Below are positions 40,794 through 59,387 of a stretch of 64,000 nt of DNA, in pieces (position 1 is the stretch's first letter; each line of letters starts with the position of its first letter). The DNA is from an uncultured Chloroflexota bacterium (GTDB lineage: Bacteria > Chloroflexota > UBA6077 > SHYK01). The notes beneath the pieces are model-generated. The model searched no databases and had not been told where the DNA came from. It saw nothing but the letters and a program-made list of their open reading frames with translations. The position numbers and the translations under genes were made by a program. The DNA lies in NCBI GenBank assembly GCA_964417895.1, contig CAYQJS010000014.1:15076-79075 (forward strand), in the 5' to 3' direction.

Positions 40794-40835
40794 AGCGTAG
40801 TCAGACGCTGGACGCCTGTCATGGGGCAATTGCCG
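40794..40835 (-). promoter_or_regulatory. Operator-promoter module M1 (upstream of the TAP-like hydrolase)
   Basis: Minus strand: cGGCAATTGCCC-c-ATGACA-17 nt-TACGCT. Confidence 0.55.
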
Positions 40836-40845
40836 GATAGGGGTC

Positions 40846-40932
40846 GCGCTGCGCATTCCCTGGCGGCGGGGTCTCCCAGGTGGCTGCAGCAGGTTGTCGA
40901 AGGCGAGCCCCCACGGCGGCCGCAAGAAACGG
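40846..40932 (-). pseudogene. 3'-terminal remnant of an acyl-CoA dehydrogenase paralog
   Basis: It reads 'RFLRPPWGLAFDNL', compared with 'GFLRPPWGLAFDNL' at the C-terminus of the intact gene 50678-51865. The DNA is colinear with 50678-50772. Confidence 0.6.
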
Positions 40933-41015
40933 AGGGCCGGAGACCGGGCCTTTGCCGCGCCGTCGCACACTCCTCTCGGATCACTGTCCGGGATGTGAGC
41001 CCTCCCTCGACCACC

Positions 41016-41086
41016 GTCTCAGGTTCTCGCCCTTGGCCCGTAGGGGCAATCGAGCGAGAATCCTTTACGACGCGGTCGCGCGGGCG
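41016..41086 (-). repeat. Repeat R2 copy 2 (orphan ASST-like 3' end '...ARATAS*' plus downstream sequence)
   Basis: Nearly identical to 37544-37614 but with no gene body attached. Confidence 0.7.
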
Positions 41087-41175
41087 TGCTCGGGCGATGG
41101 GGAAGCAGCTGGGGCAGCCCGGACTGCCAATCGAGCTGCGCCAGGCCGGAGGTTAAGCCTGCTGGGCAGCGGCTG

Positions 41176-41195
41176 TCATCGGGCATTTGCCCGAT
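41176..41195. promoter_or_regulatory. Operator palindrome M2 (20 bp: CATCGGGCA-TT-TGCCCGATG)
   Basis: Perfect 9-bp arms. It lies just downstream of the Ldh_2 pseudogene. ATGACA follows on the minus strand but I see no convincing -10. Confidence 0.45.
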
Positions 41196-41211
41196 GATGA
41201 CCTGAGTGGGC

Positions 41212-42284
41212 TCACGCGTCGTCCGTCGGCGGTAACGCCACGTCGATCGAAGCGCACGTACGTGCGAGAGCCTCCCAGGTCCGAGCCGATATCGGCACCA
41301 TGCCGGCGCTCGTGAGCGCCCGGAATCGGCGCTCGCCGCGCTCGCCAGGCAGCAACAGCTCGTCCACACCCTCCATGCGCTCCCCGCCCTTGATCTGCTC
41401 GACGAGCGTGTCTACTCGCGCCAGGAACTCCGAGGTGGGCGTGAACGCCTCCGGGTCGATCGCCCAGATAGTGCAACCGAAGGCGCCGGGTCCTTCGAGG
41501 ATCTCGCGCCCGACGGCAGCGCCGGCCAGAGCGCCCGCCAGGACCTCGACCATCAACGCCAGGCCGAACCCTTTGTGGGCGGCGTTGGGGTACCCGAGAG
41601 GCGCCATGAGTCCACCTCGGGCTCGCGCGGTGGGATCGGTCGTCGCATGGCCGCGGTGGTCAAGGAGCACTCCCTCTGGTAACTGGCGGCCGCTCTCGGC
41701 CGCCAGCTGCACAGCGAAGCCGGCAGTAGTGGTCGTGGCCGCCTCGAAAACGACTGTGCCATGGTGTCCCGAGGGCACGGCGTAGGCGAACGGATTCGTG
41801 CCCACGGTCGGCGTTCGGCCGCCCGGTGGCGCAACGGACGGCACCGCGTTGAGGCACGCGAAGCCGACCAGGCCGGCTTCGGCCAACCATCCGCGCGTAG
41901 AACCCGGGAGCGACTGGCTGGCAGCTGCGGATGCCCGCGACGGCCATGCCTCCCGCGTGCACTTTCGAGACACCAGCGCGTCGCCTCCACCACCGGCACC
42001 ACGAGGCCGCGGTCGCCGTCCAGGAGGAGCGCCGAATCCGTCTCGCGCAGCGCGGTGATGTTTGGTCGCCCATTCAGGGCGCCGCGCCGCACCTCGTCGG
42101 TGAGGAACTGGACCAGGTAGACCCCATGGCTCTCGTGCCCCCGTAGCTCCGAGTCGAGCAAGACGTCAGCGACCTGCTCGGCGTCCTCCACGGTGAGGCC
42201 GACTCGCTCGAAGGCCGCGGCGACGCACCCTCGCAGATCGCCGATCCGTACTAGCCGTGCCTTGTCCGCTACGTGCTCTGCCAC
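41212..42284 (-). pseudogene. Ldh_2-family (malate/L-lactate/ureidoglycolate) dehydrogenase with at least two frameshifts
   Basis: The N-terminus ('MAEHVADKARLV...LLLDGDRGLVVPVVEATR'), the middle ('VSKVHAGGMAVAGIRSCQPVAPGFYARM') and the C-terminus ('AEAGLVGFACLNAVPSVAPPGGRTPTVGTNPFAYAVP...') lie in three different frames. The switches are near 41975-41990 and 41880-41890. Confidence 0.7.
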
Positions 42285-42362
42285 ACGTCGGCCTCAGTTC
42301 TGCCTGAGCGGGCGGTGTCTTGCCGCTTCACGCGCCATACTATCGAACGCCGGCAGACTGCC

Positions 42363-42388
42363 CAACATCGGGCATTTGCCCGATGTTG
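42363..42388. promoter_or_regulatory. Operator palindrome M3 (26 bp perfect: CAACATCGGGCA-TT-TGCCCGATGTTG) in a divergent promoter region
   Basis: It lies between the Ldh_2 pseudogene (-) and dinB-family gene (+). On the + strand TTGCAC-17 nt-TAATGC follows; on the - strand TTGGGC-17 nt-TAGTAT follows. Confidence 0.5.
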
Positions 42389-42426
42389 CACATCCCTTGC
42401 GCCGCGGATAATGCGGCAGCAGGGAG

Positions 42427-42936
42427 GTGAACGCCATGCCTCATCCACTCGTGGACCAGCTTCGCTACACGCGGGAGCAATGGGCGCTGGGCCTCGAAGG
42501 CCTGTCAGAAGAAGATGCGACGCATCACTGCGGGCAGATGAACTGCATCAGCTGGATCATTGGCCATGCTGCTGCACAGGAACACCGCTTCTGGTTCGAG
42601 TACCAGGGGCAGCAAGGACCGTTTCCAGAGCCCGAGCAGTACGCAACGGGCGCGCCGATGAGCACGCCGTCCCTCCAGGAGACGCTGGATCTGTGGCGAA
42701 GGACGGTGAAGGCGGTCGATCCGGTCCTCGACACACTGACGACCGAGCTGCTGCAACACGAGGTGAAGAACCGCCAGGGCGCCACGCGGCTCATCGGGTC
42801 GATGGTCCGCCGCGTGACGTACCACTACTGGTACCACACGGGAGAGATCCAGAGCATCCGGCAGATGCTGGGGCACAAGGACCTTCCCGCGTTCATCGGG
42901 CCAATCGACTCCATGGCGCCGTATCGTCCGGAATGA
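42427..42936 (+). CDS. DinB-family (DinB_2) metal-dependent protein
   Basis: 169 aa, RBS GGGAGG. It has 'SWIIGHAA' and 'HYWYHTGEIQSIRQMLGH', the conserved His pattern. Confidence 0.8.
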   Translation: MNAMPHPLVDQLRYTREQWALGLEGLSEEDATHHCGQMNCISWIIGHAAAQEHRFWFEYQGQQGPFPEPEQYATGAPMSTPSLQETLDLWRRTVKAVDPVLDTLTTELLQHEVKNRQGATRLIGSMVRRVTYHYWYHTGEIQSIRQMLGHKDLPAFIGPIDSMAPYRPE

Positions 42937-42983
42937 GAGATCGGGGGATGGGGAGGCCGAAGCCAGTGAAGGAGGAGCGCACC

Positions 42984-43745: not shown

Positions 43746-43796
43746 ACCCAGGGAGGATTAATTCGGCGCACAGCTTACCGAAGGAGGACCAGCATC

Positions 43797-44138
43797 ATGG
43801 AGTATGCGCTGTTCGCGCTTCCGATTCAGCCTGGGAAGACTGCTGCCGCCCGCGGCTTTCTGCAGGAGTTGGAAAGCGAGCGCAAGGGACAATACGCGGA
43901 GTCGGAGCGGCGGCTAGGGGTCACCAAAGAGGTCTGGGCGGTCCAGCAGACAGCGGGGGGTGACCTCTTTGCGATCTTCTTCCAGAGCGAGGATATCGGC
44001 GGAGCGCTTGGGAAGTTCGTAGGGTCTCAGGACACGTTCGACCAGTGGTTCAAGGGTCGGGTCAAGGATGCCACAGGAGTTGATCTGAACATGCCTCCAG
44101 GCCCGCTCAGCGACATCCTCTCGGTGTACGAAGCATAG
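43797..44138 (+). CDS. Hypothetical small protein
   Basis: 113 aa, RBS AAGGAGG, good codon bias. I cannot assign a family. Confidence 0.55.
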   Translation: MEYALFALPIQPGKTAAARGFLQELESERKGQYAESERRLGVTKEVWAVQQTAGGDLFAIFFQSEDIGGALGKFVGSQDTFDQWFKGRVKDATGVDLNMPPGPLSDILSVYEA

Positions 44139-44499: not shown

Positions 44500-45267
44500 C
44501 TAGACGGCCCCCGCCTTCGTGAGCAAGGTGGCGAGCTCGCCCCGCGAGTGCACGCCGAGGCGGGCGTAGATCTCTTCGAGGTGCGATCGCGCCGTGCGCC
44601 ACGAGATGCTGGCCGCGGAGGCTACGTCCTGCGCGTTCATGCCGGAGGCAAACAGTCGGGCCACGTCCAGCTGCCTCGCCGTTAGCAGCGAGCAGACGCC
44701 TTCACCAGAGTCGAGTGAGCGGGCGTAGGGGTCCGGCGCGTCTTGCTCGGCCGAAAACCACAGGCTCACGTGAAACCCGCTCGGCCGTCCGGGCACCTGC
44801 TGCACTGGCAGCACATGCTCGCGCACCATCGTCATCTTTCCGCTGGCATCTCTGACAACCATCGTCCCGTCCCACTCGCGCGTGGCGCGGTACGTGGCGC
44901 GCTGCAAGTCCTCTTCGGTCTCGAGGACCTCGTCGATCAGGCGGAGGGTGGCTGGCGCGAGGTTGCCCGCCTCGACCTCCTGGTAGAGGCCGCACAGACA
45001 CTGGGCGAGCTCGTCTCTCCAGCGGGGAAACCGGTCGCGATAGGGACCGACGATGGCGGCTGGTACGAATCGCACGGGCCACGGCAGCTGGTCGCGAACC
45101 GGGTCGCCGATGGTGCTCGCGAAAGCGCGATTCACCGAGACGATGCGGTTGCGGCTATCTGTGATAAACGCCATGACCGGGAAGAGATTGAGACACGCGG
45201 CAGCGATCCTCAGGTCCGGCTGCGAGGATCGGATGTCGTCCGTGCTCACACACCCACTGTCCACCAT
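44500..45267 (-). CDS. PAS-like sensor / LuxR-type HTH one-component regulator (paralog A)
   Basis: ATG at 45267 ('MVDSGCVSTDD...'). It has 'FITDSRNRIVSVNRAFASTIG' (PAS-like) and a C-terminal 'LTARQLDVARLFASGMNAQDVA...SWRTARSHLEEIYARLGV' (LuxR/GerE HTH). It is colinear with 57725-58489. Confidence 0.75.
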   Translation of the reverse strand: MVDSGCVSTDDIRSSQPDLRIAAACLNLFPVMAFITDSRNRIVSVNRAFASTIGDPVRDQLPWPVRFVPAAIVGPYRDRFPRWRDELAQCLCGLYQEVEAGNLAPATLRLIDEVLETEEDLQRATYRATREWDGTMVVRDASGKMTMVREHVLPVQQVPGRPSGFHVSLWFSAEQDAPDPYARSLDSGEGVCSLLTARQLDVARLFASGMNAQDVASAASISWRTARSHLEEIYARLGVHSRGELATLLTKAGAV

Positions 45268-45334: not shown

Positions 45335-45376
45335 ACAATAGCTGACTCCGTGGTTGCTGTAAGGGGGCATTTGCCC
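45335..45376 (-). promoter_or_regulatory. Operator-promoter module M4 (upstream of PAS-LuxR paralog A)
   Basis: Minus strand: GGGCAAATGCCC-c-CTTACA-17 nt-TATTGT. Confidence 0.55.
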
Positions 45377-45416
45377 GACGTGTCGTTTGCCCCGACGGCG
45401 GCCGAGAGACTCGGAA

Positions 45417-46276: not shown

Positions 46277-46545
46277 GGAGCTTCAAGGTAATCTCCGTTG
46301 AACGAGCTACCTGCTAATAATTCGCGTTGGCGCGCTCGGTCCACGAGCGGGTGTAGAATCCCCGGCAAGCAAGCCGGTGCGCCCCACTGACGGACATAGG
46401 TAGACGGGACGGCGGTAGACATTGCTCCCCTCGCCGCAGTGGCGTCCGCAGCATAAGACCGGCGGGAAGGAGCCGGCGCGGCTGATCGGCCGCAGACTTG
46501 AGGCACAACGGCCGCAATTGGGCCGCACGGCAGCCGCTCCACTGT

Positions 46546-49500
46546 ATGTTCAGCGAAGAGATCGCGTGGAACGATCTCCTGAGGAGCCTCCGACGGGCCG
46601 GGGGGTTCACGCAGGCTGAGTGGAGCGCGCTCATCAGCGCCGCCGCGAAGCCCGGCAGCCGCGCCGCATGGAGCACGGACTCCGTCGCGCGATGGGAGCG
46701 AGGAGACCATCCGCCCAACGCGGACACCGCGGACGCCATCGCCACAGTGTGTCGGGAGAAGCGGCTCTTCGACGCGAGCGGTATAGGTGAGTCGCTACTC
46801 CGAGCCAAGCTGGCCCAGGCCAACGTTCGAGTTGGTCAAGCTCGCGCTAGTCGTTCTTCGGGCGAAGCCTGGCCTGCCGCCGAGATAGGCGACGCATCGG
46901 ACCGCGTTGGCGTGGGCCGCCAGCCGCCCGAGGCGGGCAGCCTCGCTTCGAGGGGCGTTGTGGCAGGCCTCGCCGGCGCGGTGCGCTTCGTTGGCCGGGA
47001 GCCGGAGCTGGCGGAGCTAACGCACCAGCTCGATGCGGCCTCCGGAGGCCCGGGTGGCATAGTCCTCGTCGCGGGCGAGCCCGGCATCGGCAAGACCCGG
47101 CTCGTCCTCGAGGTGGCCGACCGAGGCCGGACCCAGGGGTGGGAGGTGCTGTTCGGCCGAGCTTATGAGTCCGGGGGGATGCCTCCCTACCTTCCGCTTG
47201 TCGAGGCGCTACGCGCCTACGTTTGGACCTGTCCCCTCGATCAGTTGCGGGGCCAGCTCGGGGTGGGGGCCGCCGAAGTAGGCCTGCTAGTGCGAGAGGT
47301 ACGGGCGCGCCTGCCCGACCTGCCGTCCAGCCCGCCCCTCAGCCCGGAAGAAGAACGCCATCGTCTGTTCGAAGGCGTTTCTGACTTCTTGCTCAACATC
47401 GCACGCGCCAGCCCGCGGGGGTTGCTGCTCTGCCTGGATGACCTGCACTGGGCGGACAAGCCAACTCTTCTTTTGGTCCAGCACCTGGCGCGCAAGCTGG
47501 CCGACGCGCCGCTGCTCGTCGTCGGCACCTATCGGACGGTAGAGCTTGACCGAACCCACCCGCTCTCGGACGTGCTGGCGGAGCTGAGCCGTGAGCATCT
47601 CTACCAACGTATGCTGCTCTCGTCCTTCTCGGCCGACGAGGCCGGGGACTTTGTCCAGGAACGCAATGGCGGCCCAGCGGCCCCGGCTGTTGCCGCTGCG
47701 ATCTACCGAGAGACCGAGGGCAATCCCTTCTTCATGGAAGAGCTTGTGCGGCACCTGCGTGCCGAGAAATGGGATCTGGCGGACCCCAGCGTTGTCGTGG
47801 CCGACTGGGGAATACCGGAAGGGGTGCGGCAGGTCGTTGGCAAGCGCCTCTCTCGCTTGAGTCCGGAGGCGAATCGCCTGCTGCAGGCGGGGGCCGTGTT
47901 GGGCGAGGGTTTTTCCTTCGAGGTGCTCGGGGCGGTCAGCGAGTTGGAGCATTCGGGTACAAGGGAGCCCGCGGCCCTGGCGAGGCATGCCTCGCCCCTC
48001 CTGGATGCGCTCGAGGAGGCTCTCGGCGCCGGTCTGCTCCGGGAGGAGGCGCAAGACTATCACTTCACCCATGCACTGGTGCGCCAGACCATCGAGGCCG
48101 AGCTGAGCCTTCCGCGCAAGCAGCGACTCCACCTGCAGGCCGCGGAGGCCATCGAGCGCATCCACGCCCGCAATCCGGAACCTCATGCGGCTGAGCTGGC
48201 TTACCACTTCTTCCGGGCTGCCCGCGGCGGAGTCGCGGACAAGGCGGTTACCTATGCACGGCGGGCGGGCGAGCGCGCGCAAACCGTCTTCGCGTACGAG
48301 GAGGCGGTGCGCTTCCACGCTATGGCGCTGAAGGCGCTCGACCTCACCGACGCGCCCGACCCGGCCCAGCGCTGCGATCTGCTCTTGGCCCTGGGGGAGG
48401 CCCAAATGCCATTGGGCGAGCCACGTGGGGTGGCAGATGGCGTTGCGTCGGAGGCATTCGGCCTGGCCGAGGGTCTCGGCGATCGTGGCCGGGCCTCGAG
48501 AGCATGCCGGATGGTCCTGGAGGCGCTCCATCGGGACGCCCCGCGCAATACCGATACTCCCCAATGGCGCGCATGGGCGGACCTGGCTGACCGGCACGCG
48601 GAACCGGAGACTCCCGACCGAGCCTACGCCGACATTGCCATGGCGCGAGCCGCGATTGCAGCTGGCGACCAGGGCAGGGCCGTCGACCTGCTGGAGCGGG
48701 CGCTGGGTCTTGCCAGGCACCTAGACGACCCGGAGCTGCTCTGCACCTGCGCTTGGCAGCTCATGTGGGCCGGGTACACGCCCCAGCACTGGCGGCGCTC
48801 GGTGGCCATCGCCGAGGAATTCCTCGATTGGCCGCGGGAGCGGGTGCGCAGCCGCACCATCGGGCAGGTGCTGGAGTTCTGCGGCTTGATGCTGCTGGCT
48901 AATGGGGACCGAGCCGGCGTGGAGCGGGCCTGGGGAGAGTTGAGCCAGCTCGCGGCCCGCGCACGGGACGCGTTCAACCAACTCAATGCCATGAGCTATG
49001 AGGCCGTACTGGCGACCCTCGACGGACGGCTGCACGAGGCCGCGGAGATTGGTCGCCGCATGATGGCCCTCGGGGAGAAGCTGGGGATGGAGCGGGCAGC
49101 GGCGTACTTCGCGCTGACCCGGTGCGGGCGGGCGCTCCTTTATTTGGGACAAGCCGACGAGCTGGAGAGCCTCAATCGCGCGGGGGGGCCCCTCATATCC
49201 CAGACGGCCTTCGTACACGCGTATACGGGACGGCGCACCGAGAGCCAGGCCATGGTGCGAGCCTGGCTGGCCGAACATCCGCCCGATGCTGGCACGCCAG
49301 TGGACTATCTGAGCAACCTTGCGAGGTTTCTCGAGACCGCCGTGATCCTCGAGGATCGCGACGCCGCGGCGATCCTCGCTCAATGGCTGGTGGACGCTCC
49401 GCCGGTTCAGGCCGCAGGCTTCGCCACCTGCTTTGCCCGGCACGTTGGGGCGGCGGCGGCGCTTAACGGGGATCGGGCCCGGGCGCGGGACCACTACCAG

Positions 49501-49986
49501 GCGGCGCTGAAGGTGGCCACGCTACTGCATTACCGCCCGGAGGTGGCACTCACCCGCCTGCAGCTCGCCGAGCTACTGCTCGATGAGGCTTTCGCTCGGG
49601 AACGCCGTTCCCCCTCCAGGAGGGAGAAAGAGCAACGACAGGCCGAGGGGCTCGAGCATCTGGACTTTGCTATCGACGAGCTCCGCGCCATGAATATGAA
49701 GCCGGCTTTGGAGCGCGCCCTGCAAGTGCGCGGCGGCCAGCAGCCTGTGACTCCGCATCCCGACAGATCGGCACGCTTTCGGGCGGCATACCCCGCGGGC
49801 CTCTCCGAGCGGGAGCTGGATGTGTTGCGCCTTATCGCCGCGGGCAAGAGCAACCAGCGCATCGCGGATGAGCTGGTGATCAGCCTCAACACCGTGATCC
49901 GCCACGTGAGCAACATCTTCGCCAAGACCGGTGTGGCCAACCGGGTCGAGGCGGCCACCTATGCCACTCGCCACGGGCTCGCGTAG
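46546..49986 (+). CDS. Large ATPase-TPR-LuxR (LAL-type) regulator 1, with an extra N-terminal XRE-like HTH
   Basis: The N-terminus has 'LRRAGGFTQAEWSALI...SVARWERGDHPP'. The P-loop is 'GEPGIGKTRL', followed by a long TPR-like region and a C-terminal 'LSERELDVLRLIAAGKSNQRIADELVISLNTVIRHVSNIFAKTG'. The start is either 46546 or 46498. Confidence 0.8.
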   Translation: MFSEEIAWNDLLRSLRRAGGFTQAEWSALISAAAKPGSRAAWSTDSVARWERGDHPPNADTADAIATVCREKRLFDASGIGESLLRAKLAQANVRVGQARASRSSGEAWPAAEIGDASDRVGVGRQPPEAGSLASRGVVAGLAGAVRFVGREPELAELTHQLDAASGGPGGIVLVAGEPGIGKTRLVLEVADRGRTQGWEVLFGRAYESGGMPPYLPLVEALRAYVWTCPLDQLRGQLGVGAAEVGLLVREVRARLPDLPSSPPLSPEEERHRLFEGVSDFLLNIARASPRGLLLCLDDLHWADKPTLLLVQHLARKLADAPLLVVGTYRTVELDRTHPLSDVLAELSREHLYQRMLLSSFSADEAGDFVQERNGGPAAPAVAAAIYRETEGNPFFMEELVRHLRAEKWDLADPSVVVADWGIPEGVRQVVGKRLSRLSPEANRLLQAGAVLGEGFSFEVLGAVSELEHSGTREPAALARHASPLLDALEEALGAGLLREEAQDYHFTHALVRQTIEAELSLPRKQRLHLQAAEAIERIHARNPEPHAAELAYHFFRAARGGVADKAVTYARRAGERAQTVFAYEEAVRFHAMALKALDLTDAPDPAQRCDLLLALGEAQMPLGEPRGVADGVASEAFGLAEGLGDRGRASRACRMVLEALHRDAPRNTDTPQWRAWADLADRHAEPETPDRAYADIAMARAAIAAGDQGRAVDLLERALGLARHLDDPELLCTCAWQLMWAGYTPQHWRRSVAIAEEFLDWPRERVRSRTIGQVLEFCGLMLLANGDRAGVERAWGELSQLAARARDAFNQLNAMSYEAVLATLDGRLHEAAEIGRRMMALGEKLGMERAAAYFALTRCGRALLYLGQADELESLNRAGGPLISQTAFVHAYTGRRTESQAMVRAWLAEHPPDAGTPVDYLSNLARFLETAVILEDRDAAAILAQWLVDAPPVQAAGFATCFARHVGAAAALNGDRARARDHYQAALKVATLLHYRPEVALTRLQLAELLLDEAFARERRSPSRREKEQRQAEGLEHLDFAIDELRAMNMKPALERALQVRGGQQPVTPHPDRSARFRAAYPAGLSERELDVLRLIAAGKSNQRIADELVISLNTVIRHVSNIFAKTGVANRVEAATYATRHGLA

Positions 49987-50467: not shown

Positions 50468-50623
50468 CGATTGGTGTTGACCTACGGCGCGGGATCTCGC
50501 TGACGGATGACGGGCTAAGGGAAGCGTCGGCGCATCATCAACTTTCGCGTTCATGAATTGGCCGCGGGGCGGCCGTGGGAGTACTGGCTCGACCACCAGC
50601 ATTCGTGGCCGACGGCCCTGGAC

Positions 50624-50665
50624 AGCGTAGTCAGACCCTGGACGCCTGTCATGGGGCATTTGCCG
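50624..50665 (-). promoter_or_regulatory. Operator-promoter module M5 (downstream of the ACAD gene; drives only a 3-codon remnant)
   Basis: Minus strand: cGGCAAATGCCC-c-ATGACA-17 nt-TACGCT. An ATGAACGCG at 50554 is identical to the first 9 nt of the TAP-like hydrolase gene, and homology ends there. Confidence 0.5.
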
Positions 50666-50677
50666 GATGGGGATCGC

Positions 50678-51865
50678 CTATGCGTTTCCTGGCCGCTGCG
50701 CCGAATTCTCCCAGGTGGCTGCGAACAGGTTGTCGAAGGCGAGCCCCCAAGGCGGCCGCAAGAACCCGAGGGCACGAACGTCTTCAAACCAGAAGCCAAA
50801 CGGTGACTCGCGGCCGTAGGTCCCACCGCCGACTATTCGGCACAGCCTCTGGAGCACCGACTCCGCCAGCTCAGCGATCGCGATCTTCGCCAGCCTGCGG
50901 CCGGCGCCTCCCTGCTCAACGGCGCGCAGCATGCCCTCATACGCCTGCTCGACGAGCCACGCCTCGGTCTCGGCCCGCGTCCACTCGACGCGCTCGAACG
51001 AGCGCCAGTCGGGGCGCCGCCCCAGCGCCTCACGAGCAGTCTCCATCGCCGTTGCGACGATCCCAGCCATGATTGCCGGCCACAGCGGGCTGCCCCCCGA
51101 CGGTTCCTGGGAACGGCGGACCGCCTGCGGCGCGGCGGCGCGCCGGGCGGGGAAGTCCTCGAACATCAGCATGTGGCTCTGCGTGGCCGCCATGCCGTGG
51201 CCGTCCCACGGCGCCACGAGCTTGACGCCCGCCGACCCGTCAAAGGGAATACCGCGCATATCCAGGATGAAGTCGTCCCGCCTCGACTCGCCCTCCGGGA
51301 TAGCGACGGTGATCATGTACGAGGCGACGCCGGTGCCGCTCCCGAAGTGCTTCAGGCCACTGAGGCGGTACTCGCCATCGCCCTGCCCACACCGGGCGAC
51401 CGACTTGGTCTTCGACGTATCGCCGCCGCTGCCCGGCTCCGACGCGATGGTGCTCCACCAGGCTCCGTCCGTCACCGTCTGGAAGATCCAGCGCTTCTGC
51501 TCCGCCCAGGCGTCCGCATAAGGGGGCGGCGCCTGCGCGTCGGCCAGCCACCCGTAGGCGCTGAGCACCGCGGGATGCATCGACGCGACGAGGGCCACGG
51601 AGGAATCCCCTTTCGCCAGCATGCGGAACATGTCAGCCAGAGCCCGGATGGAGCGCGGCATGCCCTCCCACAGACCACCGTACCTGGAGGGAGCACACGC
51701 CAGCAGCAGGCCCGTGTCCCTGAGGTGATCGAAGTCGGCTGGATCGAGCGCCCGCCTGCGCTGTCTCTCGCCTCGCTGCTGGGCAAAGGCCGCCGCTACA
51801 TCGCGCACGTTCTCCGCCACGGTTTGCATGTCCACGGTCAACCCTCCCTGACGAGCAAGAGCCAC
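50678..51865 (-). CDS. Acyl-CoA dehydrogenase-family protein
   Basis: 395 aa with 'IASEPGSGGDTSKTKS' (ACAD-type motif). The start lies 7 nt after the cupin stop, suggesting an operon. Confidence 0.75.
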   Translation of the reverse strand: MALARQGGLTVDMQTVAENVRDVAAAFAQQRGERQRRRALDPADFDHLRDTGLLLACAPSRYGGLWEGMPRSIRALADMFRMLAKGDSSVALVASMHPAVLSAYGWLADAQAPPPYADAWAEQKRWIFQTVTDGAWWSTIASEPGSGGDTSKTKSVARCGQGDGEYRLSGLKHFGSGTGVASYMITVAIPEGESRRDDFILDMRGIPFDGSAGVKLVAPWDGHGMAATQSHMLMFEDFPARRAAAPQAVRRSQEPSGGSPLWPAIMAGIVATAMETAREALGRRPDWRSFERVEWTRAETEAWLVEQAYEGMLRAVEQGGAGRRLAKIAIAELAESVLQRLCRIVGGGTYGRESPFGFWFEDVRALGFLRPPWGLAFDNLFAATWENSAQRPGNA

Positions 51866-52344: not shown

Positions 52345-54819
52345 TCAGGCTGTGTGGGCTTCCGCCCTGAGACCGAGTCTCTGCTGCGCCGCCCAGACGG
52401 CCACCTGGGCTCGCGAGGTGAACCCGAGCTTGCCGAGGATATGCTTGACGTGGAGGTTGGCCGTCCCTTCGGTGATGACGAGCGCGGCCGCGATCTGGCG
52501 ATTTGTCCGCCCGTCAGCGAGCAGACCCGCGACTTCACGCTCGCGCCGCGTCAGAGCGCCGAGCCGCGGATCCATCCCGCCGTCGCCCGCGGCAGGGGGG
52601 GTCGCCGCGGACTCGACGACCTCCAGGCCGCGCGCGACGGCTTCCTCGAAGGGCATCGCTCTTCCGAGGGCCCAGCCGTCGGCGAACGCCTGGGCGCTGA
52701 GTCTGCCGCGCGCGATGGCCACGTTGTGCTCGTATGCTGCATGGTCCGTCGGCTCGAGGACGATGCCCGCGGCCTCCGCGATCGCCTCGGCCGCGCCGAA
52801 GAGCGTGGCGGCAGCGGCCGCCCGACCGGCCATCGCCGCCACTCCGGCCAATCCCGTGAGGCACATCACCGTCCCTCTTGCATTGCCGAGCCGGCGCCAG
52901 GCCCGCAGGCTTTCCCCGAGGAGCAGCGCGGCGCGGCGCCAGTCACCCTGGGACTCCGCCACGTACCCCAGGTCATGGAGGGCCATCGCCAGGCTCCACT
53001 CATCGCCCCGCTCACGGAACAGGGCGGCAGCCTCTTCGAACAGCGATCGTGCCGCGGCGTAATCGCCTTCCTGGTACGCGACCAGCCCGAGGCCGCGGAG
53101 CGGCATGGCGAGGTCGAACCTGTCCCCTCGTTCGCGAAAGAGTCGCGCGCTCTCCTCGAACAGCGCATCGGCTGCCGCTGGATCGTCCCGCGCCACCGCC
53201 AGCCCGAGGAAATGGAGCGCGACGCCACACCCCCAGTCGTCGCCGAGCTGACGAAAGATCTCAACGCTCTCCGCCCCGAGCGCCGTTGCTGCATCATCGC
53301 CCTGGTCACGGGCGACGCGCCCGAGGAAGGTCAACGCTGGAGCTATTACGCTCGGGTCGCCCAGCTCTCGCGCAATCTCCAGGCTCTCGGTAAGAAGCGT
53401 GCGCGCCGCCGTGTAGTCGGCTTGCCAGAGCGCGAGTTGGCCGCCTGCCAGCAGCGCCTTCGCGCGGTGCCGGTTTCGTCCCCCGAGCTGCGGCAGCTCC
53501 AGGACCTCAGCACTGCGCCGCCGCCCTTCGGTCAGGTGGCCGCGTATCCACCAGAACCGCCACAGCACTGCCACCAGGCGCACCGCAAGCTCGGCCTCCC
53601 CCCGCTCGACCATCCAGCGCAGCGCAGCCCGCATGTTGTCGTGGTCTAACTCCAGCCGCTCCAGCCATGCGCCCTGCTCAGGTCCGGCCAGTGCAGCCTC
53701 CGCCTGCTCGGCCAGGGACAGGTAGTAGGTGGCGTGCTGACCGCGCAGGGCATCGAGCTCCCTGCTCGCATCCAGGCACTCCAGCGCATACTCGCGAACG
53801 GTCTCCAGCATGACGAAGCGCGTCGCACCGTCCGCGGCCCCCGAACGCCGAAGCAGATTGTTCTGTACCAGCGCCTCGAGTGCCTCGGTGACGTTCATGC
53901 CGAGGGGGCCGGGCCCGTCGCACACCGCCTCTACCGCCTGGCGCGTGCAGCCACCGACGAAGGCGCCTAGCCTCCGGTACAGCACGCGCTCGCCGGCTTG
54001 CAGCAGGGTGTAGCTCCAGCCGATGGCGGCACGGAGCGTCTGCTGCCGCGCCGGGAGGTCACGCGGGCCGCCGGCGAGGAGGCTCAATCTGCTCGACAGC
54101 AGGTTGAGCATCGATTGAGGCGGTAAGACCTTGCTGCGCGCGGCCGCCAGCTCGATGGATAGCGGCAATCCATCCAGCCGAACGCAGATTTCCGCCACTG
54201 CCAGGGCGTTCTCCGGCCCCACTACGAAATCGGGTTGAATCGCCTGCGCCCGCTCCACGAACAGCTCAACGGACGGCGGGCCTACCAGATCCCCCAGGCT
54301 CTGCCAGCGATCGAGATCCGGTAGTGCGAGGGGCGAAACGGGGAACTCATGCTCCCACCTCAGGCGGAGGGGCGCTCGACTCGTCACGAGCATCTTGATG
54401 CTCGGGCAGGCCGCGAGGAGCTCGGCAATGACGGGGGCGGCGGGCAGCACCTGCTCGAAGTTGTCCAGCACGAGAAGCGCCTGCTTGTCCCACAAGTAGT
54501 CTTTCAAGGAGTCGAGCAGGCCATGCGCGCCGGCCTCTCGGACTCCGAACGGATGGGCCATGGCGGAAGGAACCAGCGCCGGATCACTGATCGGGGCGAG
54601 ATCGACGAAACAGACGTCATGCTCGAACTCGTTGAGCAGGCTTGCCGCCACCTCCAGCGCGAGCCGGGTCTTGCCGCTGCCGGGGGCCCCGGTGAAGGTC
54701 AGGAGGCGCACATCAGGGTGCTTGAGGGTTTCCTGGGCGGCGGCAACGTCCTGGTCGCGACCGATCAGCCGCGTGGGCGGAGCTGGCAGGCTGCGGCCCT
54801 TAGGGCTCAAACCCGACAT
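52345..54819 (-). CDS. Large ATPase (NB-ARC-like)-TPR-LuxR regulator 2
   Basis: 824 aa with P-loop 'GAPGSGKTRLALEVA', multiple TPR-like repeats and a C-terminal 'LTRREREVAGLLADGRTNRQIAAALVITEGTANLHVKHILGKLG'. Confidence 0.8.
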   Translation of the reverse strand: MSGLSPKGRSLPAPPTRLIGRDQDVAAAQETLKHPDVRLLTFTGAPGSGKTRLALEVAASLLNEFEHDVCFVDLAPISDPALVPSAMAHPFGVREAGAHGLLDSLKDYLWDKQALLVLDNFEQVLPAAPVIAELLAACPSIKMLVTSRAPLRLRWEHEFPVSPLALPDLDRWQSLGDLVGPPSVELFVERAQAIQPDFVVGPENALAVAEICVRLDGLPLSIELAAARSKVLPPQSMLNLLSSRLSLLAGGPRDLPARQQTLRAAIGWSYTLLQAGERVLYRRLGAFVGGCTRQAVEAVCDGPGPLGMNVTEALEALVQNNLLRRSGAADGATRFVMLETVREYALECLDASRELDALRGQHATYYLSLAEQAEAALAGPEQGAWLERLELDHDNMRAALRWMVERGEAELAVRLVAVLWRFWWIRGHLTEGRRRSAEVLELPQLGGRNRHRAKALLAGGQLALWQADYTAARTLLTESLEIARELGDPSVIAPALTFLGRVARDQGDDAATALGAESVEIFRQLGDDWGCGVALHFLGLAVARDDPAAADALFEESARLFRERGDRFDLAMPLRGLGLVAYQEGDYAAARSLFEEAAALFRERGDEWSLAMALHDLGYVAESQGDWRRAALLLGESLRAWRRLGNARGTVMCLTGLAGVAAMAGRAAAAATLFGAAEAIAEAAGIVLEPTDHAAYEHNVAIARGRLSAQAFADGWALGRAMPFEEAVARGLEVVESAATPPAAGDGGMDPRLGALTRREREVAGLLADGRTNRQIAAALVITEGTANLHVKHILGKLGFTSRAQVAVWAAQQRLGLRAEAHTA

Positions 54820-54851
54820 GGGCCGGGTCGGATCCGGACAACGGCTGGAAG

Positions 54852-55159
54852 CCTACGCAACCGGCGCACCCATGAGCACGCCTGCGCTGAAGAAAACGTT
54901 AGACCTCTGGCGCAACACCACGCCGGCGGCCGATCCGTATCTCGATACGCTGACCACGAGCATCTTGCAGTCAGAAATGACCATCCGGACGGGCGCCAAG
55001 CGACTTATCGGCTCCATGCTCCGCCGCGTGACCTACCATTACTCGTATCACACCGGAGAGACTCAGAGCATCCGCCAGATGCTGGGCCACAAGGACCTCC
55101 CCGGGTTCATCGGTCCCATCGACGCGGGAGCGCCATATCGCCCAGAACACCCGAGCTAG
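54852..55159 (+). pseudogene. 5'-truncated DinB-family gene (C-terminal ~100 codons only)
   Basis: 'YATGAPMSTPALKKTLDLWRN...RRVTYHYSYHTGETQSIRQMLGHKDLPGFIGPIDAGAPYRPE' is colinear with residues ~68-169 of 42427-42936. Homology begins about 30 nt from the LAL-2 start codon. Confidence 0.7.
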
Positions 55160-55359
55160 ACCGCGCTAAGACCGATAACTGCCGTCGCACCTGGCTCTGG
55201 ATGATAACGACGCTCTGGTAGGCGGTCAAACAGGCCTCAACGGCTCCCACTCTGGCAGGAAACAGGGTTGGGGCGACGGCGTGACCTCGTTCCCCCTGGA
55301 TTCGGCCCGATCGATACTGGAGCGCCCTGCCGTCCGGAGTAAGCCGAAGCTGACCTAAC

Positions 55360-55429: not shown

Positions 55430-55470
55430 TCTCTATGCAGGCCAGGACTCGGCTGCCTGGGCACTTGCCC
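55430..55470 (-). promoter_or_regulatory. Operator-promoter module M6 (upstream of the deleted ABM-like gene)
   Basis: Minus strand: GGGCAAGTGCCC-AGGCAG-17 nt-TAGAGA. Confidence 0.45.
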
Positions 55471-55556
55471 GATCAGGCCCCAAGTGAACACGGCCCGAGC
55501 TCCGAGCGCGCGTTGTTCCCCGGAGGTGGCGCGGACGCCTGCGGATTCGATGCGGA

Positions 55557-56534
55557 TCAATCGGCGGTGCCCCAGCCGGACCATTCGTGCCGCAGCTCGT
55601 CCGCCATCGTCGCGCCATGGCGCACGCCAGCTTCGGCGGCTAGCGCCGATTCGCCGAATCCCGTCACCGTCGGTGAGTCGGGCGGTGGTAGAACGTGGAC
55701 CACGCTTCCGCCGTAATAACTGCGGAACCGCTCGATTGCCTGTAGGGCACGCTGCCCTGTGCCGCCGGGCGTGATCGCGACCACGACGTTGTAGCCGATC
55801 GCCCCTTCGAGATTCTCTCCCATGACCCCGCCGTCCATGTAGCGCCGCGCACCTACCGTGATCGGCGCATCTCGGCCGGGCGCTGCCCGGCTGGCCGCCA
55901 CGGCGCGCTCAATCGGGACCCCCTGGGCCCGGTCGAAGAACCGCACGGTGCCGTCATACACGTCGACGGCTGCGAGTTTTAGCGGAAGGTCCGGCCAGTC
56001 ACGCATCCCGAGGTCGGCCGCCGTACTTTGGATGCGGTCCTCCTCCAGTGCCCCGTTTGCTGTCAGCGCCATCGCCCCAATCTGAATCCGCTGGGCTACG
56101 GTCCGCTCTGGGGCTAACGGTCCCTGCCACATTCGGGATAGTTCCTGTGTGATCTGGGCGTCTTCGGGTGACTGGACGGGACCGACGGCGAATGGCGCTG
56201 GTGCGAGGGCCTGAGCGTACAGTGCGTCGAGGTCTCGGCCAGCACGGACCAAGGTGGCCACGCGCGAACCTGCGGAGGTTCCGACGAACAGATCAGCTTC
56301 CGTGAGGTCCACCCCTGCGTCGCGCATTCCCTTCAGTACACCCAGTTCCCACGCCTCTCCTACGCTGCCCCCACCGCCGAGCACGACCGCGCGCCGCAAA
56401 CCGGCGAGTTGATTCGTGGCGACCTCAGGAGCCTGCTGGCCAACCGCGGGACTCGATAGGCTGCTGGACGCGACCAGCGCCATACCGAGAGACCACAAAC
56501 TTGCGGCTATGCGGTGCCAACTCGGCGACGTCAT
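55557..56534 (-). CDS. Secreted patatin-like phospholipase
   Basis: It has a signal peptide, 'VVLGGGGSVGEAWELG' (oxyanion GGGxxG), 'GTSAGS' (GxSxG) and 'YMDGGV' (catalytic Asp). Confidence 0.8.
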   Translation of the reverse strand: MTSPSWHRIAASLWSLGMALVASSSLSSPAVGQQAPEVATNQLAGLRRAVVLGGGGSVGEAWELGVLKGMRDAGVDLTEADLFVGTSAGSRVATLVRAGRDLDALYAQALAPAPFAVGPVQSPEDAQITQELSRMWQGPLAPERTVAQRIQIGAMALTANGALEEDRIQSTAADLGMRDWPDLPLKLAAVDVYDGTVRFFDRAQGVPIERAVAASRAAPGRDAPITVGARRYMDGGVMGENLEGAIGYNVVVAITPGGTGQRALQAIERFRSYYGGSVVHVLPPPDSPTVTGFGESALAAEAGVRHGATMADELRHEWSGWGTAD

Positions 56535-56598
56535 GTCTCAGATCCTCCTCCGTTTTCCGTGTGAACCAAGGAAACTCACCATCTGGGAATTGACCGGC

Positions 56599-57147
56599 TC
56601 ACGCCGGCGGATGCCACTCCAACTTGCCGTTCATTGGACCGACGAACCCGATCGACGGGTGACCAAGCATCTGACGAATCGCGTTGATCTCGCCGATGTG
56701 AAACCAGGTGTGGAGCACAGTCCGCATCAGGCCCGTGCCGAGCGACTCATCCAGCAGTCGGCTGCCGTCCAACATTCCTGATCCGACCGTCGCCAGAGCG
56801 GCCTCGTCGGCGAGGGCGACCCAATCGGAGGTGGCTTTCGCCTGGCGGAACAGGTCTAACGCATTGGCGAGCGGAGGCGGCGCCGCAACGTCCGATCCGG
56901 AGCGAAACGGATAGACGGCCTTGCGCAGATCGGCAAACGGCTCGGTTTCCCCCTTCGCGAGAGCAGCCCGGGTCGCGACCCGGACCCACTGCCAGGAGAC
57001 GTGCCCCACGATCCACGAGATCGCATTCATCTGAGTCCCATCGGCCTTGACCAGACGCGAGCTCGCGTCTTTATCGGTGAGGTCGCCCTCAAGAGCGCGC
57101 TCGAAGCTGAACATTGCAAAGTTGGCCAGTTCCTGCGACTTGTACAT
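56599..57147 (-). CDS. DinB-family protein (second type)
   Basis: 182 aa with 'SWIVGHVSWQW' and 'HTWFHIGEINAIRQMLGH'. Confidence 0.75.
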   Translation of the reverse strand: MYKSQELANFAMFSFERALEGDLTDKDASSRLVKADGTQMNAISWIVGHVSWQWVRVATRAALAKGETEPFADLRKAVYPFRSGSDVAAPPPLANALDLFRQAKATSDWVALADEAALATVGSGMLDGSRLLDESLGTGLMRTVLHTWFHIGEINAIRQMLGHPSIGFVGPMNGKLEWHPPA

Positions 57148-57215
57148 CAGCGATCTCCTCTTGGCGATACGAAGAGAGGCCGTGCGAGTAAACCGGCTAA
57201 TGCCATTCCTGAAAG

Positions 57216-57506
57216 CTAAACCTGCGCGACGACCTCGAAGCTCTCGACAGATTGCGTCGCGATCCCCAGTTGTTGCCCGCGCTGACCGGTCACCTGTGTT
57301 ACCTGTCCCTGGCTCGCGCGCATGGAATCCTCATCCTTCCACAGGGTGATGGCGAGCACCTTGCCCGTCTGGCGGTCCATCAGCCAGAGGCCACCCTGAG
57401 AGCCGGCTTGCTGCTCGATGCGCGGCAGAATGTCCTCCTGGATGTGCCGGATCGTGTCAGCGGTGAGATTGGAAGGGCTGGCGACCGTTGTCACGCGTGC
57501 GAACAT
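57216..57506 (-). CDS. Small ABM/Dabb-fold-like protein
   Basis: ATG at 57506 after GGGGAGG. 96 aa reading 'MFARVTTVASP...GGLWLMDRQTGKVLAITLWKDEDSMRAS'. Confidence 0.6.
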   Translation of the reverse strand: MFARVTTVASPSNLTADTIRHIQEDILPRIEQQAGSQGGLWLMDRQTGKVLAITLWKDEDSMRASQGQVTQVTGQRGQQLGIATQSVESFEVVAQV

Positions 57507-57587
57507 TTGTCGGAACCTCCCCTGATCTCGGGCGATGGGCTTGCCTCCGGGACGTCCGCGGGCTCCCAATTCATCCCTGCGTTTTGC

Positions 57588-57629
57588 AGTCTAGGCCGGC
57601 CAGGACGCGGCTGCCTGGGGCAATTGCCC
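57588..57629 (-). promoter_or_regulatory. Operator-promoter module M7 (upstream of ABM-DinB-patatin)
   Basis: Minus strand: GGGCAATTGCCC-c-AGGCAG-17 nt-TAGACT. Confidence 0.5.
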
Positions 57630-57724
57630 GATATTGCGCGGCTTGAATCACCACCCGAGCTAAGAGGGCACGGTGTTGCCCGGAAGCGGGTGCGCAGGGC
57701 GCGAATGCCCGCGGGGTCGAGGCT

Positions 57725-58489
57725 TTAAACCGCTCCTGCGCGGGTCATCACCGATGCAAGCTCGGCCCTGGAATGAACGCCGAGGCGGTCGTAGATCTCC
57801 TCCAGATGCGAGCGCGCGGTTCTCCAGGAGATGCCAGCGGCTGAGGCTACGGCGTCGGCCGTCATGCCAGAGGCGAACAGGCGGGCGATGTCGAGCTGCC
57901 GCGAGGTCAGCGATGACGAGATGATGGTGCCGGAGTCCGCTGCGCGAGCGAACGGCGCGGGTGTATCCTGGTCAGCGGGAAACCACAAGCTCACGTGGAA
58001 CCCGCTCGCCCTTCCCGCGGCAGCCTCCACCGGCAACACGTGCTCGCGGACCAGGGTCATTTTCCCGCCCGGATCCTTGACGACCATGGTCCCGTCCCAC
58101 TCGCGCGTCGTTCGGTAGGTCGCGCGAAGCAGGTCCTCTTCGCCCTCGATCAGGGCTTCGATCAAATGCATGGTGCCCGGCGCCAGATTGCCTGCCTCGA
58201 CCTCCTGGTAGAGCCCCGGGAGACACTGGGCGATCTCGTCTCTCCAGCGCGGGAATCGGTCGCGATAGGGACCAACGATCGCGGCTGGCAGGAACCGCGC
58301 CGGCCACGGCAGCTCGTCACGAACAGGATCGCCGATCGTGCGCGCAAAGGCGTGGTTCACCCAGATGATGCGGTTGCAGCGGTCGGTGAGAAAAGCCATG
58401 ATCGGGAACAGATTCAGACACGCCGCGGCCACCCGCAGCTCTTGTTGCGAGGATCGGGCCTCGTCCGTGCTCGCGCGCCCACCATCCAC
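57725..58489 (-). CDS. PAS-like sensor / LuxR-type HTH one-component regulator (paralog B)
   Basis: 254 aa, colinear with 44500-45267. It has 'FLTDRCNRIIWVNHAFARTIG' and a C-terminal LuxR HTH. Confidence 0.75.
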   Translation of the reverse strand: MDGGRASTDEARSSQQELRVAAACLNLFPIMAFLTDRCNRIIWVNHAFARTIGDPVRDELPWPARFLPAAIVGPYRDRFPRWRDEIAQCLPGLYQEVEAGNLAPGTMHLIEALIEGEEDLLRATYRTTREWDGTMVVKDPGGKMTLVREHVLPVEAAAGRASGFHVSLWFPADQDTPAPFARAADSGTIISSSLTSRQLDIARLFASGMTADAVASAAGISWRTARSHLEEIYDRLGVHSRAELASVMTRAGAV

Positions 58490-58554
58490 CGTGCCTCCCT
58501 CCTCCGCCCGCGGGCGGGCGGCTTCGCGCCGACGACCGGGTTCACGATCCCGGC

Positions 58555-58596
58555 ACAGTACTCCACTCCGCGCCCCGTGTCATGGGGCATTTGCCC
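58555..58596 (-). promoter_or_regulatory. Operator-promoter module M8 (upstream of PAS-LuxR paralog B)
   Basis: Minus strand: GGGCAAATGCCC-c-ATGACA-17 nt-TACTGT. Confidence 0.55.
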
Positions 58597-58723
58597 GACA
58601 GCGCCAGACGGTCCGTGGATTGCGAGCTTGGCGGTTGCTGACCAGGCGTGCTACCCAGGCACCACCGTGATGCTCCCGACTGTGCCGCGCTCGTGATGGA
58701 TCAAGCAATAGTGCTCGCAGTGG

Positions 58724-59251
58724 CTAGGACGGGCTCCAGGCCAGCGTCTCCGTATTCCCGATCAGCTCAAGCGATGGGGTGCCGTCATCCGCGACGAGCA
58801 ACCGGATCCGGTCCTTGCCGGTCTCGTCCCGCAGGACCACATTGGCATCGCCTAGGGAGCGGCCGGCCAGCTCGGCGGACCGGCCGACGCCACCGATCCG
58901 CACGATGGGAACGCTGCCGTTCCAGAGCGCGAATCCCTGGCTGACACTTCCATCCGGGTTATCCCCCATTTCGACATGGACCCGGAGTTGTCCGTTCAGA
59001 TCAAAGATCCGCAGCGCGCCGGTGTTGCCGGGACCAGCTACCAGGTGTATGCGGTCGGTGCCGCCGTCCGTAACGATCATGGACTGTTCGGCCCGCAGGT
59101 CGGAGCTCTCTCCATCCCGCCGTTCTGGCAGCTGAGGCGGCTGCGGCTGGGCACCCGCGGAGCCCGGATCCACAAGGCTCGACGCCAAGACGGTTCCGAG
59201 GACAGCCATAGCGAAGGATACGATTCCCGATAGCGCAACCGTTCGATTCAT
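58724..59251 (-). CDS. Secreted hypothetical protein
   Basis: ATG at 59251 after GAGGAGG. 175 aa with a signal peptide and a repetitive beta-rich sequence. I recognise no family. Confidence 0.55.
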   Translation of the reverse strand: MNRTVALSGIVSFAMAVLGTVLASSLVDPGSAGAQPQPPQLPERRDGESSDLRAEQSMIVTDGGTDRIHLVAGPGNTGALRIFDLNGQLRVHVEMGDNPDGSVSQGFALWNGSVPIVRIGGVGRSAELAGRSLGDANVVLRDETGKDRIRLLVADDGTPSLELIGNTETLAWSPS

Positions 59252-59345
59252 GACAAGTGGCCTCCTCAATGCTGACTTCGATTCGCCTCTACATCTGCCG
59301 AGATCGGCGTAGCGTCGCCCCGTGGCCCGTCTTCCCGGCCCCGGC

Positions 59346-59387
59346 AGCGTACTCCGCTTCGCGGCTCGTGTCATGGGGCATTTGCCC
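59346..59387 (-). promoter_or_regulatory. Operator-promoter module M9 (upstream of the secreted hypothetical protein)
   Basis: Minus strand: GGGCAAATGCCC-c-ATGACA-17 nt-TACGCT. Confidence 0.55.

Follow-up and report, generated by a model that had tools for sequence, protein, structure and literature searches.

A 64-kb stretch of the genome of an uncultured Chloroflexota bacterium (contig CAYQJS010000014.1, positions 15,076 to 79,075; hereafter the window) harbors nine copies of a short palindromic repeat with the core GGGCAwwTGCCC, all of them confined to 40.8-59.4 kb. We consider it probable that this repeat is the operator of two one-component regulators encoded in the same region, PAS-LuxR-1 and PAS-LuxR-2, that the regulators act from it as class II activators, and that its copies represent a regulon multiplied by duplication. 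All coordinates given below are positions in the window, and the motif scans of the source genome cover the window only.

Six copies match the sequence GGGCAWWTGCCC exactly (41181, 42370, 45365, 57618, 58585, and 59376), the chance expectation obtained from 100 dinucleotide-preserving shuffles of the window being 0.00. The other three (40824, 50654, and 55459) are near-variants, retrieved when any two-nucleotide centre and one mismatch are allowed: in 40824 and 50654 the outer C is replaced by G, and in 55459 both arms are perfect and the centre is CT instead of WW. The total of nine reported by the first-pass annotation of this DNA thus holds, with one coordinate corrected from 41180 to 41181, and so does its observation that the motif is restricted to the cluster, as the matches with at most one mismatch found elsewhere in the window (3383, 4430, 13809, and 27161) do not exceed the number expected by chance (four versus 5.2) and lack conserved flanks. 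One of them, site 13809 (GGGCATCTGCCC), was considered separately and rejected as a chance match, for it has a wrong centre, no ATC/GAT flanks and a weight-matrix score below 10 bits.

The palindrome was recognized correctly in that annotation, but its length of 12 bp was not. On the transcribed strand of all copies (A/G)TC precedes the core and (C/G)AT follows it, so that, reading the flanks, the conserved unit is an 18-bp dyad, ATC-SGGCAwwTGCCS-GAT, which includes the "AT" of the adjacent hexamer ATGACA; in two copies the perfect palindrome extends to 20-26 bp. The 16-mer TCSGGCAWWTGCCSSA, with at most one mismatch, finds eight of the nine sites and nothing else in the 64 kb (0.02 expected). 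When a weight matrix is built from sites of other contigs alone and run over the window, eight of the nine sites are again recovered (18-34 bits; the shuffles reach 17.7 bits at most), and no match of 10 bits or more lies outside 40.8-59.4 kb; the copy missed (below 10 bits) is 55459. Reading of the repeat as an RNA hairpin or terminator was ruled out, because the core, with its 5-bp stem and a loop of only 2 nt, is incapable of folding and the long palindromes occur only at two bidirectional sites.

The placement of the dyad with respect to the promoter is nearly constant (all promoter elements, i.e., -35 and -10 boxes and transcription starts, are predictions from the sequence). In 8 of 11 independent promoter families a hexamer nAnnnT starts exactly 24 nt past the core (background 0.035 per position, binomial P = 3.6e-10), and no other offset of such a hexamer is found in more than two of the 11 families; the 24-nt offset holds in five of the seven lineages other than that of the window. 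At all sites the dyad abuts or overlaps a -35-like hexamer, the overlap being formed by its promoter-proximal arm, and the "AT" of ATGACA is the outer arm of the dyad. If transcription starts 7 nt after the nAnnnT hexamer, the centre of the dyad would be at -42.5, which would agree with the earlier proposal of a class-II-activator-like position near -42. When four orthologous and paralogous promoters of PAS-LuxR genes are aligned, the dyad, ACA and the -10 box TAxTxT stand out as invariant blocks amid diverged flanks. The hexamers and the 17-nt spacing listed in the first-pass annotation were found as described, except that TAGAGA of site 55459 does not conform to TAnnnT; its list of seven copies with -35-like hexamers omitted 41181, which also has ATGACA, yet no -10 box. 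The favorable hexamer ATGACA occurs only in the window clade and two other lineages. Distant lineages have poor -35 hexamers (ATGCGC, ATGCAG, ATGTGG, GTGCAG, and ATGCCG), as would be expected if these promoters depend on an activator.

The putative reader of the dyad is encoded twice within the cluster. PAS-LuxR-2 (254 aa; 57725..58489, minus strand, GTG start at 58489, identified with Pfam) and PAS-LuxR-1 (255 aa; 44500..45267, minus strand, ATG 45267; Pfam GerE 1e-10, MLTR_LBD 1.5e-5) are 74% identical and have identical recognition helices, so both paralogues should read the same dyad. Their GerE domains are matched at 1e-10 to 1e-11, the PAS and MLTR_LBD matches being below the gathering thresholds; NCBIfam contains no specific family for these proteins, and none of its models reaches beyond the helix-turn-helix (HTH) domain. 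In the AlphaFold model of PAS-LuxR-2 (pLDDT 84.7) an N-terminal helix is followed by a five-stranded PAS-type domain and a LuxR-type HTH of four helices. By fold the model is most similar to EL222 (9.5e-8) and VqmA (4e-6), LOV and PAS domains being found as well; the profile search against PDB sequences also leads to EL222 (1.6e-13), and the sensor half taken separately is closest to the MmyB-like PAS protein 3pxp of Chloroflexus aurantiacus (TM-score 0.47). An N-terminal PAS-type fold followed by a C-terminal LuxR/GerE HTH in a protein of ~190-260 aa is the architecture of PAS-LuxR regulators. In the alignments of the family and EL222 no homologue has the cysteine of the LOV motif GXNCRFLQ before the invariant RF, and therefore the family is not one of blue-light photoreceptors. 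The RF dipeptide corresponds to residues 65-66 of PAS-LuxR-2; a separate cysteine, C89, is invariant across the family, which could be a sign that redox state or electrophiles are sensed.

The homologues of PAS-LuxR-2 come almost exclusively from metagenomes, one of them being found in a metagenome-assembled genome (MAG) of Dehalococcoidia; for the MgtE protein of the window, the nearest relatives that bear a name belong to Chloroflexota MAGs. Contigs obtained by exact-protein look-up (short metagenome contigs with regulators 41-84% identical to PAS-LuxR-2) carry the dyad beside the PAS-LuxR gene in every readable case, so what had been described as a private module is a putative operator shared by the whole family. 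The closest loci, L003/L004 (84% identity to PAS-LuxR-2), have four dyads whose relative positions correspond to those of the window, among them a bidirectional one at 11758 of L003, between DinB and Ldh_2 genes arranged divergently as at 42370; L011 (73%) has two dyads. Farther away the dyad persists in L006-9 (50%; CATCGGGCAAATGCCCGATGACA-17-TACACT), L012 (50%; ATCCGGCATTTGCCCGATGACA-17-TAAAAT), L010 (48%; ATCCGGCATTTGCCGGATG), L016 (44%; TCCGGCAAATGCCGGATG), L014 (41%; ATCGGGCATTTGCCGGATG), and L139 (41%; ATCCGGCAAATGCCGGGTG), and, as a symmetric variant, in L005 (57%; TCCGGCGAACGCCGGATG). Among themselves the outgroup regulators share only 37-57% identity and hence represent independent lineages. 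The dyad is almost always located upstream of a DinB_2-family gene, which in the outgroups is the first or second gene past it; in the loci of P0015, P0012, and P0011, for which gene order only was considered, PAS-LuxR is likewise followed by DinB_2. PAS-LuxR is the only regulator common to all loci. The papers searched contain no mention of the motif, nor of PAS-LuxR regulators in Chloroflexi.

The variant of L005 (TCCGGCGAACGCCGGA, ~10850-10867) deserves separate consideration, as it alters both half-sites symmetrically, from CA/TG to CG/CG, and in the recognition helix of the adjoining regulator, P0010, RTAR is replaced by RTAK, a feature unique among the regulators with readable DNA. P0012 and P0015 share RTAK with P0010. 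In this subclade of 55-57% identity (L005 6413-9976; P0015 and P0012 loci) the PAS-LuxR gene lies directly downstream of a large gene for a Ser/Thr-kinase-AAA_16 protein, which suggests a different upstream input. It is tempting to combine a co-evolution of operator and recognition helix (CG/CG together with Arg-to-Lys in L005), heterodimers of the two paralogues integrating two signals on one amplified regulon, and a roadblock or insulator function of the dyad following Ldh_2, although we regard this as a speculation with a rather small chance of being correct.

From these observations on the sites, their geometry and conservation, and on the regulator that accompanies them and its fold, we infer binding, activation and the transcription starts as follows. 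A PAS-LuxR dimer would bind the 18-bp dyad ATC-SGGCAwwTGCCS-GAT, its N-terminal PAS-like/MmyB-like domain serving for sensing and dimerization and its C-terminal LuxR/GerE HTH for DNA reading. Bound ~42.5 bp upstream of the predicted start, with the proximal arm over the -35 box, the dimer would recruit RNA polymerase, by the class II mechanism, to promoters equipped only with a TAnnnT-type -10 box, the -35 box often being poor. The ancestral regulon may have consisted of a single promoter before a DinB_2-family gene, in many cases with a small ABM- or SnoaL-like gene ahead of the latter. The regulator genes of the window clade presumably gained the dyad themselves, and with it positive autoregulation; the earlier suggestion of autoregulation accords with the location of modules 4 and 8 before both paralogues. 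Segmental duplication would then have carried the module to the hydrolase, Ldh_2, the patatin operon and the secreted protein described below, leaving three gene-less copies, and one dyad (42370) would serve two divergent promoters. Judging by the genes involved, the stimulus may be a xenobiotic, an electrophile or a redox signal.

Precedents for such an arrangement exist in other phyla. PimM and CfaR, the PAS-LuxR activators of Streptomyces, bind the 16-bp dyad CTVGGGAWWTCCCBAG on the -35 box or immediately upstream of it and activate transcription, and the PAS domain of CfaR is required for dimerization. The likeness to our system, drawn from the domain architecture and the site placement, includes a small protein of PAS-type and LuxR HTH domains, a G-rich dyad with an A/T centre by the -35 box, and several local promoters; binding and activation would, by this analogy, be the same. 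The differences are also clear. The window operator is 18 bp long and has GGGCA-WW-TGCCC in place of GGGA-WW-TCCC, its GGG/CCC triplets being 2 bp further apart; matches to the PimM box at three mismatches number four in the window versus 5.4 expected, and none coincides with our sites, which read ATCSGGCAWWTGCCSGAT. The host belongs to Chloroflexota and not to Streptomyces, the score of the sensor is higher for an MmyB-like ligand-binding domain than for a canonical PAS domain, and autoregulation is a feature predicted for the window regulators. Finally, no polyketide synthase, nonribosomal peptide synthetase or other core biosynthetic genes are present among the annotated open reading frames (ORFs) of the window or the related loci; in contrast to the biosynthetic clusters of Streptomyces, the proposed targets here are DinB_2, hydrolase, Ldh_2, and patatin genes.

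EL222, a LOV-HTH protein of Erythrobacter litoralis, is the top match among solved structures by both profile and fold. It acts as a dimer on an 18-bp region, activating when its site replaces the lux box over the -35 element of an engineered promoter and repressing when the site is between -35 and -10; the PAS-LuxR family differs from it in lacking the LOV cysteine and in its DNA site. VqmA, the DPO (3,5-dimethylpyrazin-2-ol) receptor of Vibrio cholerae, is a ligand-activated dimer of the same two-domain fold that recognizes 18 bp of DNA containing a GG-N6-CC dyad, a spacing present in GGGCAwwTGCCC as well; its sensor, however, has no detectable sequence relationship with ours, and VqmA is proteobacterial and has one main target, the vqmR promoter. 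LuxR itself occupies the lux box, a dyad at ~-42.5 overlapping the -35 box in a promoter whose core elements are weak. The dyad centre predicted in our case (~-42.5) would be equivalent, and the predicted overlap with the -35 box and the weak core promoter are shared, whereas the lux box is 20 bp long and LuxR has an autoinducer-binding domain instead of a PAS-type sensor. As for the MmyB-like regulators (PDB 3pxp), the similarity concerns the sensor half, with Pfam MLTR_LBD near the threshold; they have an N-terminal Xre-type HTH, so that the domain order is reversed relative to the C-terminal LuxR/GerE HTH found here. The geometry together with the precedents of PimM/CfaR, EL222, and VqmA makes class II activation by a PAS-LuxR dimer the most likely mode of action, and the view that a dimeric local regulator reads the palindrome is strengthened by the same arrangement in PimM, CfaR, and EL222 and by the dyad travelling with the PAS-LuxR homologues. 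The PAS-LuxR proteins are thus the likely readers, and the whole system is most likely a further example of a well-known type of gene switch rather than a new kind of element.

Several facts weigh against this interpretation. An E. coli-type sigma-70 promoter scanner calls none of the modules; the promoter assignment therefore rests on conserved geometry and not on consensus strength, and of the designation "sigma70-like" used previously only the geometry is retained. In the window clade ATGACA matches TTGACA at five of six positions, and the promoters of this clade may have basal activity and be repressed via the dyad, which overlaps the -35 box. Two dyads find no explanation in the activator model, 41181 and 12999 of L003 (12996-13013), both located after Ldh_2 and devoid of a fixed-offset -10 box and of a downstream gene; a relic, a roadblock and an auxiliary site are all conceivable. 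Among species-representative genomes no relatives of the regulator were found, only generic LuxR-HTH matches (MAGs of Bryobacteraceae and Gemmatimonadaceae), and no dyads. A reverse search with a 19-mer hit at least 120 metagenome loci, with the regulator present in two among the matches listed (L035 and L040, of the L006 lineage); this search is low-powered and the remaining loci are probably chance matches, given a probability of ~1e-10 per position. Lastly, the covariation of operator and recognition helix is seen in a single lineage, L005.

The closest competitor to activation is binding of the same regulators to the same dyad as repressors, ligand-relieved repressors or dual regulators blocking the -35 box. 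The overlap of the proximal arm with the near-consensus ATGACA of the window clade speaks for it, as does the ability of EL222 and LuxR to repress from sites over core promoter elements, and a repressor or roadblock role could also cover the gene-less dyads 41181 and L003 12999. Still, the predicted centre at ~-42.5 would be the canonical position of class II activation, from which, or from its equivalent, CfaR and PimM activate, the repressing sites of EL222 and LuxR are located between -35 and -10 or further downstream, and the -35 box is poor in most lineages, so we believe repression to be unlikely. As to the identity of the reader, the first-pass annotation had also offered the LAL-type (AAA+/TPR/LuxR) regulators, which would leave the PAS-LuxR genes as mere targets. 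Indeed, LAL proteins share the GerE-type HTH, and three of their genes lie within the same 20 kb and three more in L003; these are, however, the only LAL genes among the loci. They are absent from the L006-9, L012, L014, L016, L010, L139, and L005 loci, seven lineages that keep the dyad by the PAS-LuxR/DinB_2 pair, and in the window none of the LAL genes is preceded by a dyad at a distance usual for promoters, the nearest being the decayed copy 55459, ~640 nt upstream of the start at 54819. Since LAL genes are missing from most homologous loci, a LAL reader appears very improbable.

A transcription factor encoded elsewhere could read the dyad, in which case its linkage to PAS-LuxR would reflect mere conservation of the neighborhood. 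With 64 kb of this genome and a set of short metagenome contigs inspected, there is room for such a factor, and most of the motif-matching contigs, among the matches listed, are without the regulator. Considering, on the other hand, that the dyad directly adjoins the PAS-LuxR gene in eight lineages sharing little else, that LuxR-type HTH dimers typically bind G-rich dyads of 16-20 bp, and that in L005 the operator, symmetrically, and the recognition helix of the adjoining regulator have both changed, we give this possibility very little credit. The least credible explanation, which we find barely tenable, denies the copies any regulatory role and treats them as passive passengers of duplication or as a small mobile or repetitive extragenic palindromic (REP)-like repeat. 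The region is indeed a duplication mosaic, with three pairs of sites sharing extended flanks and three gene-less sites; but only ~18-20 bp and the -10 box are conserved amid diverged flanks, the orientation and the distances to the -10 box and the start codon are fixed, the dyad is kept in loci whose proteins are 41-57% identical, a divergence at which neutral DNA would have been randomized, and the 5-bp stem with its 2-nt loop is unable to form a hairpin. Conserved length (18-20 bp), fixed orientation and offset to -10 boxes and start codons, and retention across distant lineages distinguish the dyad from REP elements and miniature inverted-repeat transposable elements alike.

If activation by PAS-LuxR dimers is accepted, the analysis provides a proposed concrete operator, regulator and regulon for an uncharacterized family of one-component regulators in uncultured Chloroflexota. 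To our knowledge, almost no transcription-factor sites have been defined experimentally in this phylum. The consistent association with genes for DinB_2/MST-type enzymes suggests a specialized detoxification or redox response. Synthetic promoters might be built with the 18-bp dyad, or with its naturally occurring symmetric variant, as an orthogonal part, in the way already followed with EL222. The general understanding of LuxR-type activation is not changed by this finding.

The flanks of the nine copies are partly shared: 40824 and 50654 are 93% identical, 55459 and 57618 are 90% identical, and 58585, 59376, and 45365 share 66-81% identity. Owing to these shared flanks the copies are not independent and fall into about five promoter families, and the comparison of their sequences indicates that they arose by segmental duplication. 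Sites 40824 and 50654 are two copies of one junction, comprising the 3' end of an acyl-CoA dehydrogenase (ACAD) gene, the promoter and the hydrolase start, with the hydrolase gene kept only at 40824. The corresponding direct repeats (40751-40937 and 50584-50773, 93% identical, 9.83 kb apart) bracket the block of Ldh_2, DinB_2, PAS-LuxR-1, and LAL genes and look like a scar of a duplication or insertion that split the ACAD-hydrolase junction.

Genes in the window were called from codon-position GC content, Pfam matches and inspection of start codons. Six modules are located 60-110 nt ahead of start codons that possess a good ribosome-binding site, and the targets named earlier (the PAS-LuxR genes, the hydrolase, the ABM-DinB-patatin unit and the secreted protein) are among the downstream genes; site 42370, left unassigned, would serve Ldh_2 and DinB_2. 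Module 1 (40794..40838, minus strand) is composed of the dyad 40821-40838 (ATCCGGCAATTGCCCCAT), ATGACA at 40817-40822, and the -10 box TACGCT at 40794-40799. It precedes the gene of a secreted TAP-like alpha/beta hydrolase (39177..40718, minus strand; signal peptide MNARLLILAVLVIG; Pfam Abhydrolase_1 4e-25, Abhydrolase_4 5e-12), whose AGGAGG ribosome-binding site and ATG 40718 lie ~75 nt downstream of the module. An ACAD-like 3'-end fragment at 40863..40937 (minus strand; tblastn; direct repeats D7, D8, and D10) identifies module 1 as one copy of the duplicated ACAD/promoter/hydrolase junction. The other copy, module 5 (50624..50668, minus strand), is 93% identical to module 1 and is followed only by a truncated hydrolase start (ATGAACGCGAAAG), with no gene.

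Dyad 2 (41178..41195, minus strand; ATCGGGCAAATGCCCGAT), i.e., site 41181, lies immediately 3' of the stop codon of Ldh_2. The Ldh_2 gene (malate/L-lactate dehydrogenase family; 41212..42284, minus strand) is frameshifted: its Pfam match is split over two ORFs, and the tblastn alignment with the intact 356-aa orthologue of L003 is spread over three reading frames, which would make it either a pseudogene or a product of assembly frameshifts. Upstream of it a perfect bidirectional dyad is retained, module 3 (42339..42412, both strands), with a 26-bp perfect palindrome at 42363-42388 in the divergent intergenic region. Both its -10 boxes are 25 nt from the core, GATAGT (42339-42344, minus strand) facing Ldh_2 and GATAAT (42407-42412, plus strand) facing the DinB_2/MST-family gene (42436..42936, plus strand; Pfam DinB_2 7e-12), the product of which is 80% identical to the DinB of L003 and whose ATG 42436 was set by alignment with this orthologue. 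Module 4 (45335..45379, minus strand; dyad 45362-45379, CTTACA, 17 nt, TATTGT) precedes PAS-LuxR-1. Upstream of its dyad, at 45380-45400 of the minus strand, there is a 17-nt insertion relative to the orthologous promoters, with a partial extra half-site (TCGGGGCAAAC).

Module 7 (57588..57632, minus strand; dyad 57615-57632, AGGCAG, 17 nt, TAGACT) has orthologues at 10785 of L003 and 2119 of L011. It precedes an operon (55557..57506, minus strand) of a 96-aa ydhR/ABM-like protein (57216-57506), DinB_2 (56599-57147) and a patatin-like lipase (55557-56534; Pfam). The 96-aa protein is 86% identical to a 96-aa protein of L003, and with a ydhR match at E = 0.011 the ABM label given to it is weak. 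Module 6 (55430..55473, minus strand; dyad with an AAGT centre, AGGCAG, 17 nt, TAGAGA) is a decayed copy of module 7 with no downstream gene. It faces the remnant of a DinB_2 paralogue (54821..55147, plus strand; tblastn, repeat D1) that is 5'-truncated to residues 61-169 and cut by the LAL start at 54819, and mirrors the intact unit of dyad, ABM and convergent DinB genes in L003. The gene-less sites are thus three (41181, 50654, and 55459) and not two, as stated before. Module 8 (58555..58599, minus strand; dyad 58582-58599, ATGACA, 17 nt, TACTGT) precedes the gene of PAS-LuxR-2, and module 9 (59346..59390, minus strand; dyad 59373-59390, ATGACA, 17 nt, TACGCT) that of a 175-aa secreted protein with a signal peptide (58724..59251, minus strand), which has no Pfam or NCBIfam match.

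Two LAL genes of the window are intact (46498-49986, plus strand, and 52345-54819, minus strand), and the third (59874-62809, minus strand) is split into an AAA_16 ORF (61796-62809) and a GerE ORF (59874-61673) and is probably disrupted. The sole match to an E. coli-type promoter in 40.5-60 kb, TTGACC-17-TATCAT at 55201-55229 (minus strand), falls in the stretch from the decayed dyad 55459 to the LAL start at 54819 and runs antisense to the remnant of DinB_2. An arylsulfotransferase gene is found near the regulon both in the window (37593-38459, minus strand) and in the distant L006 locus (10045-11394).

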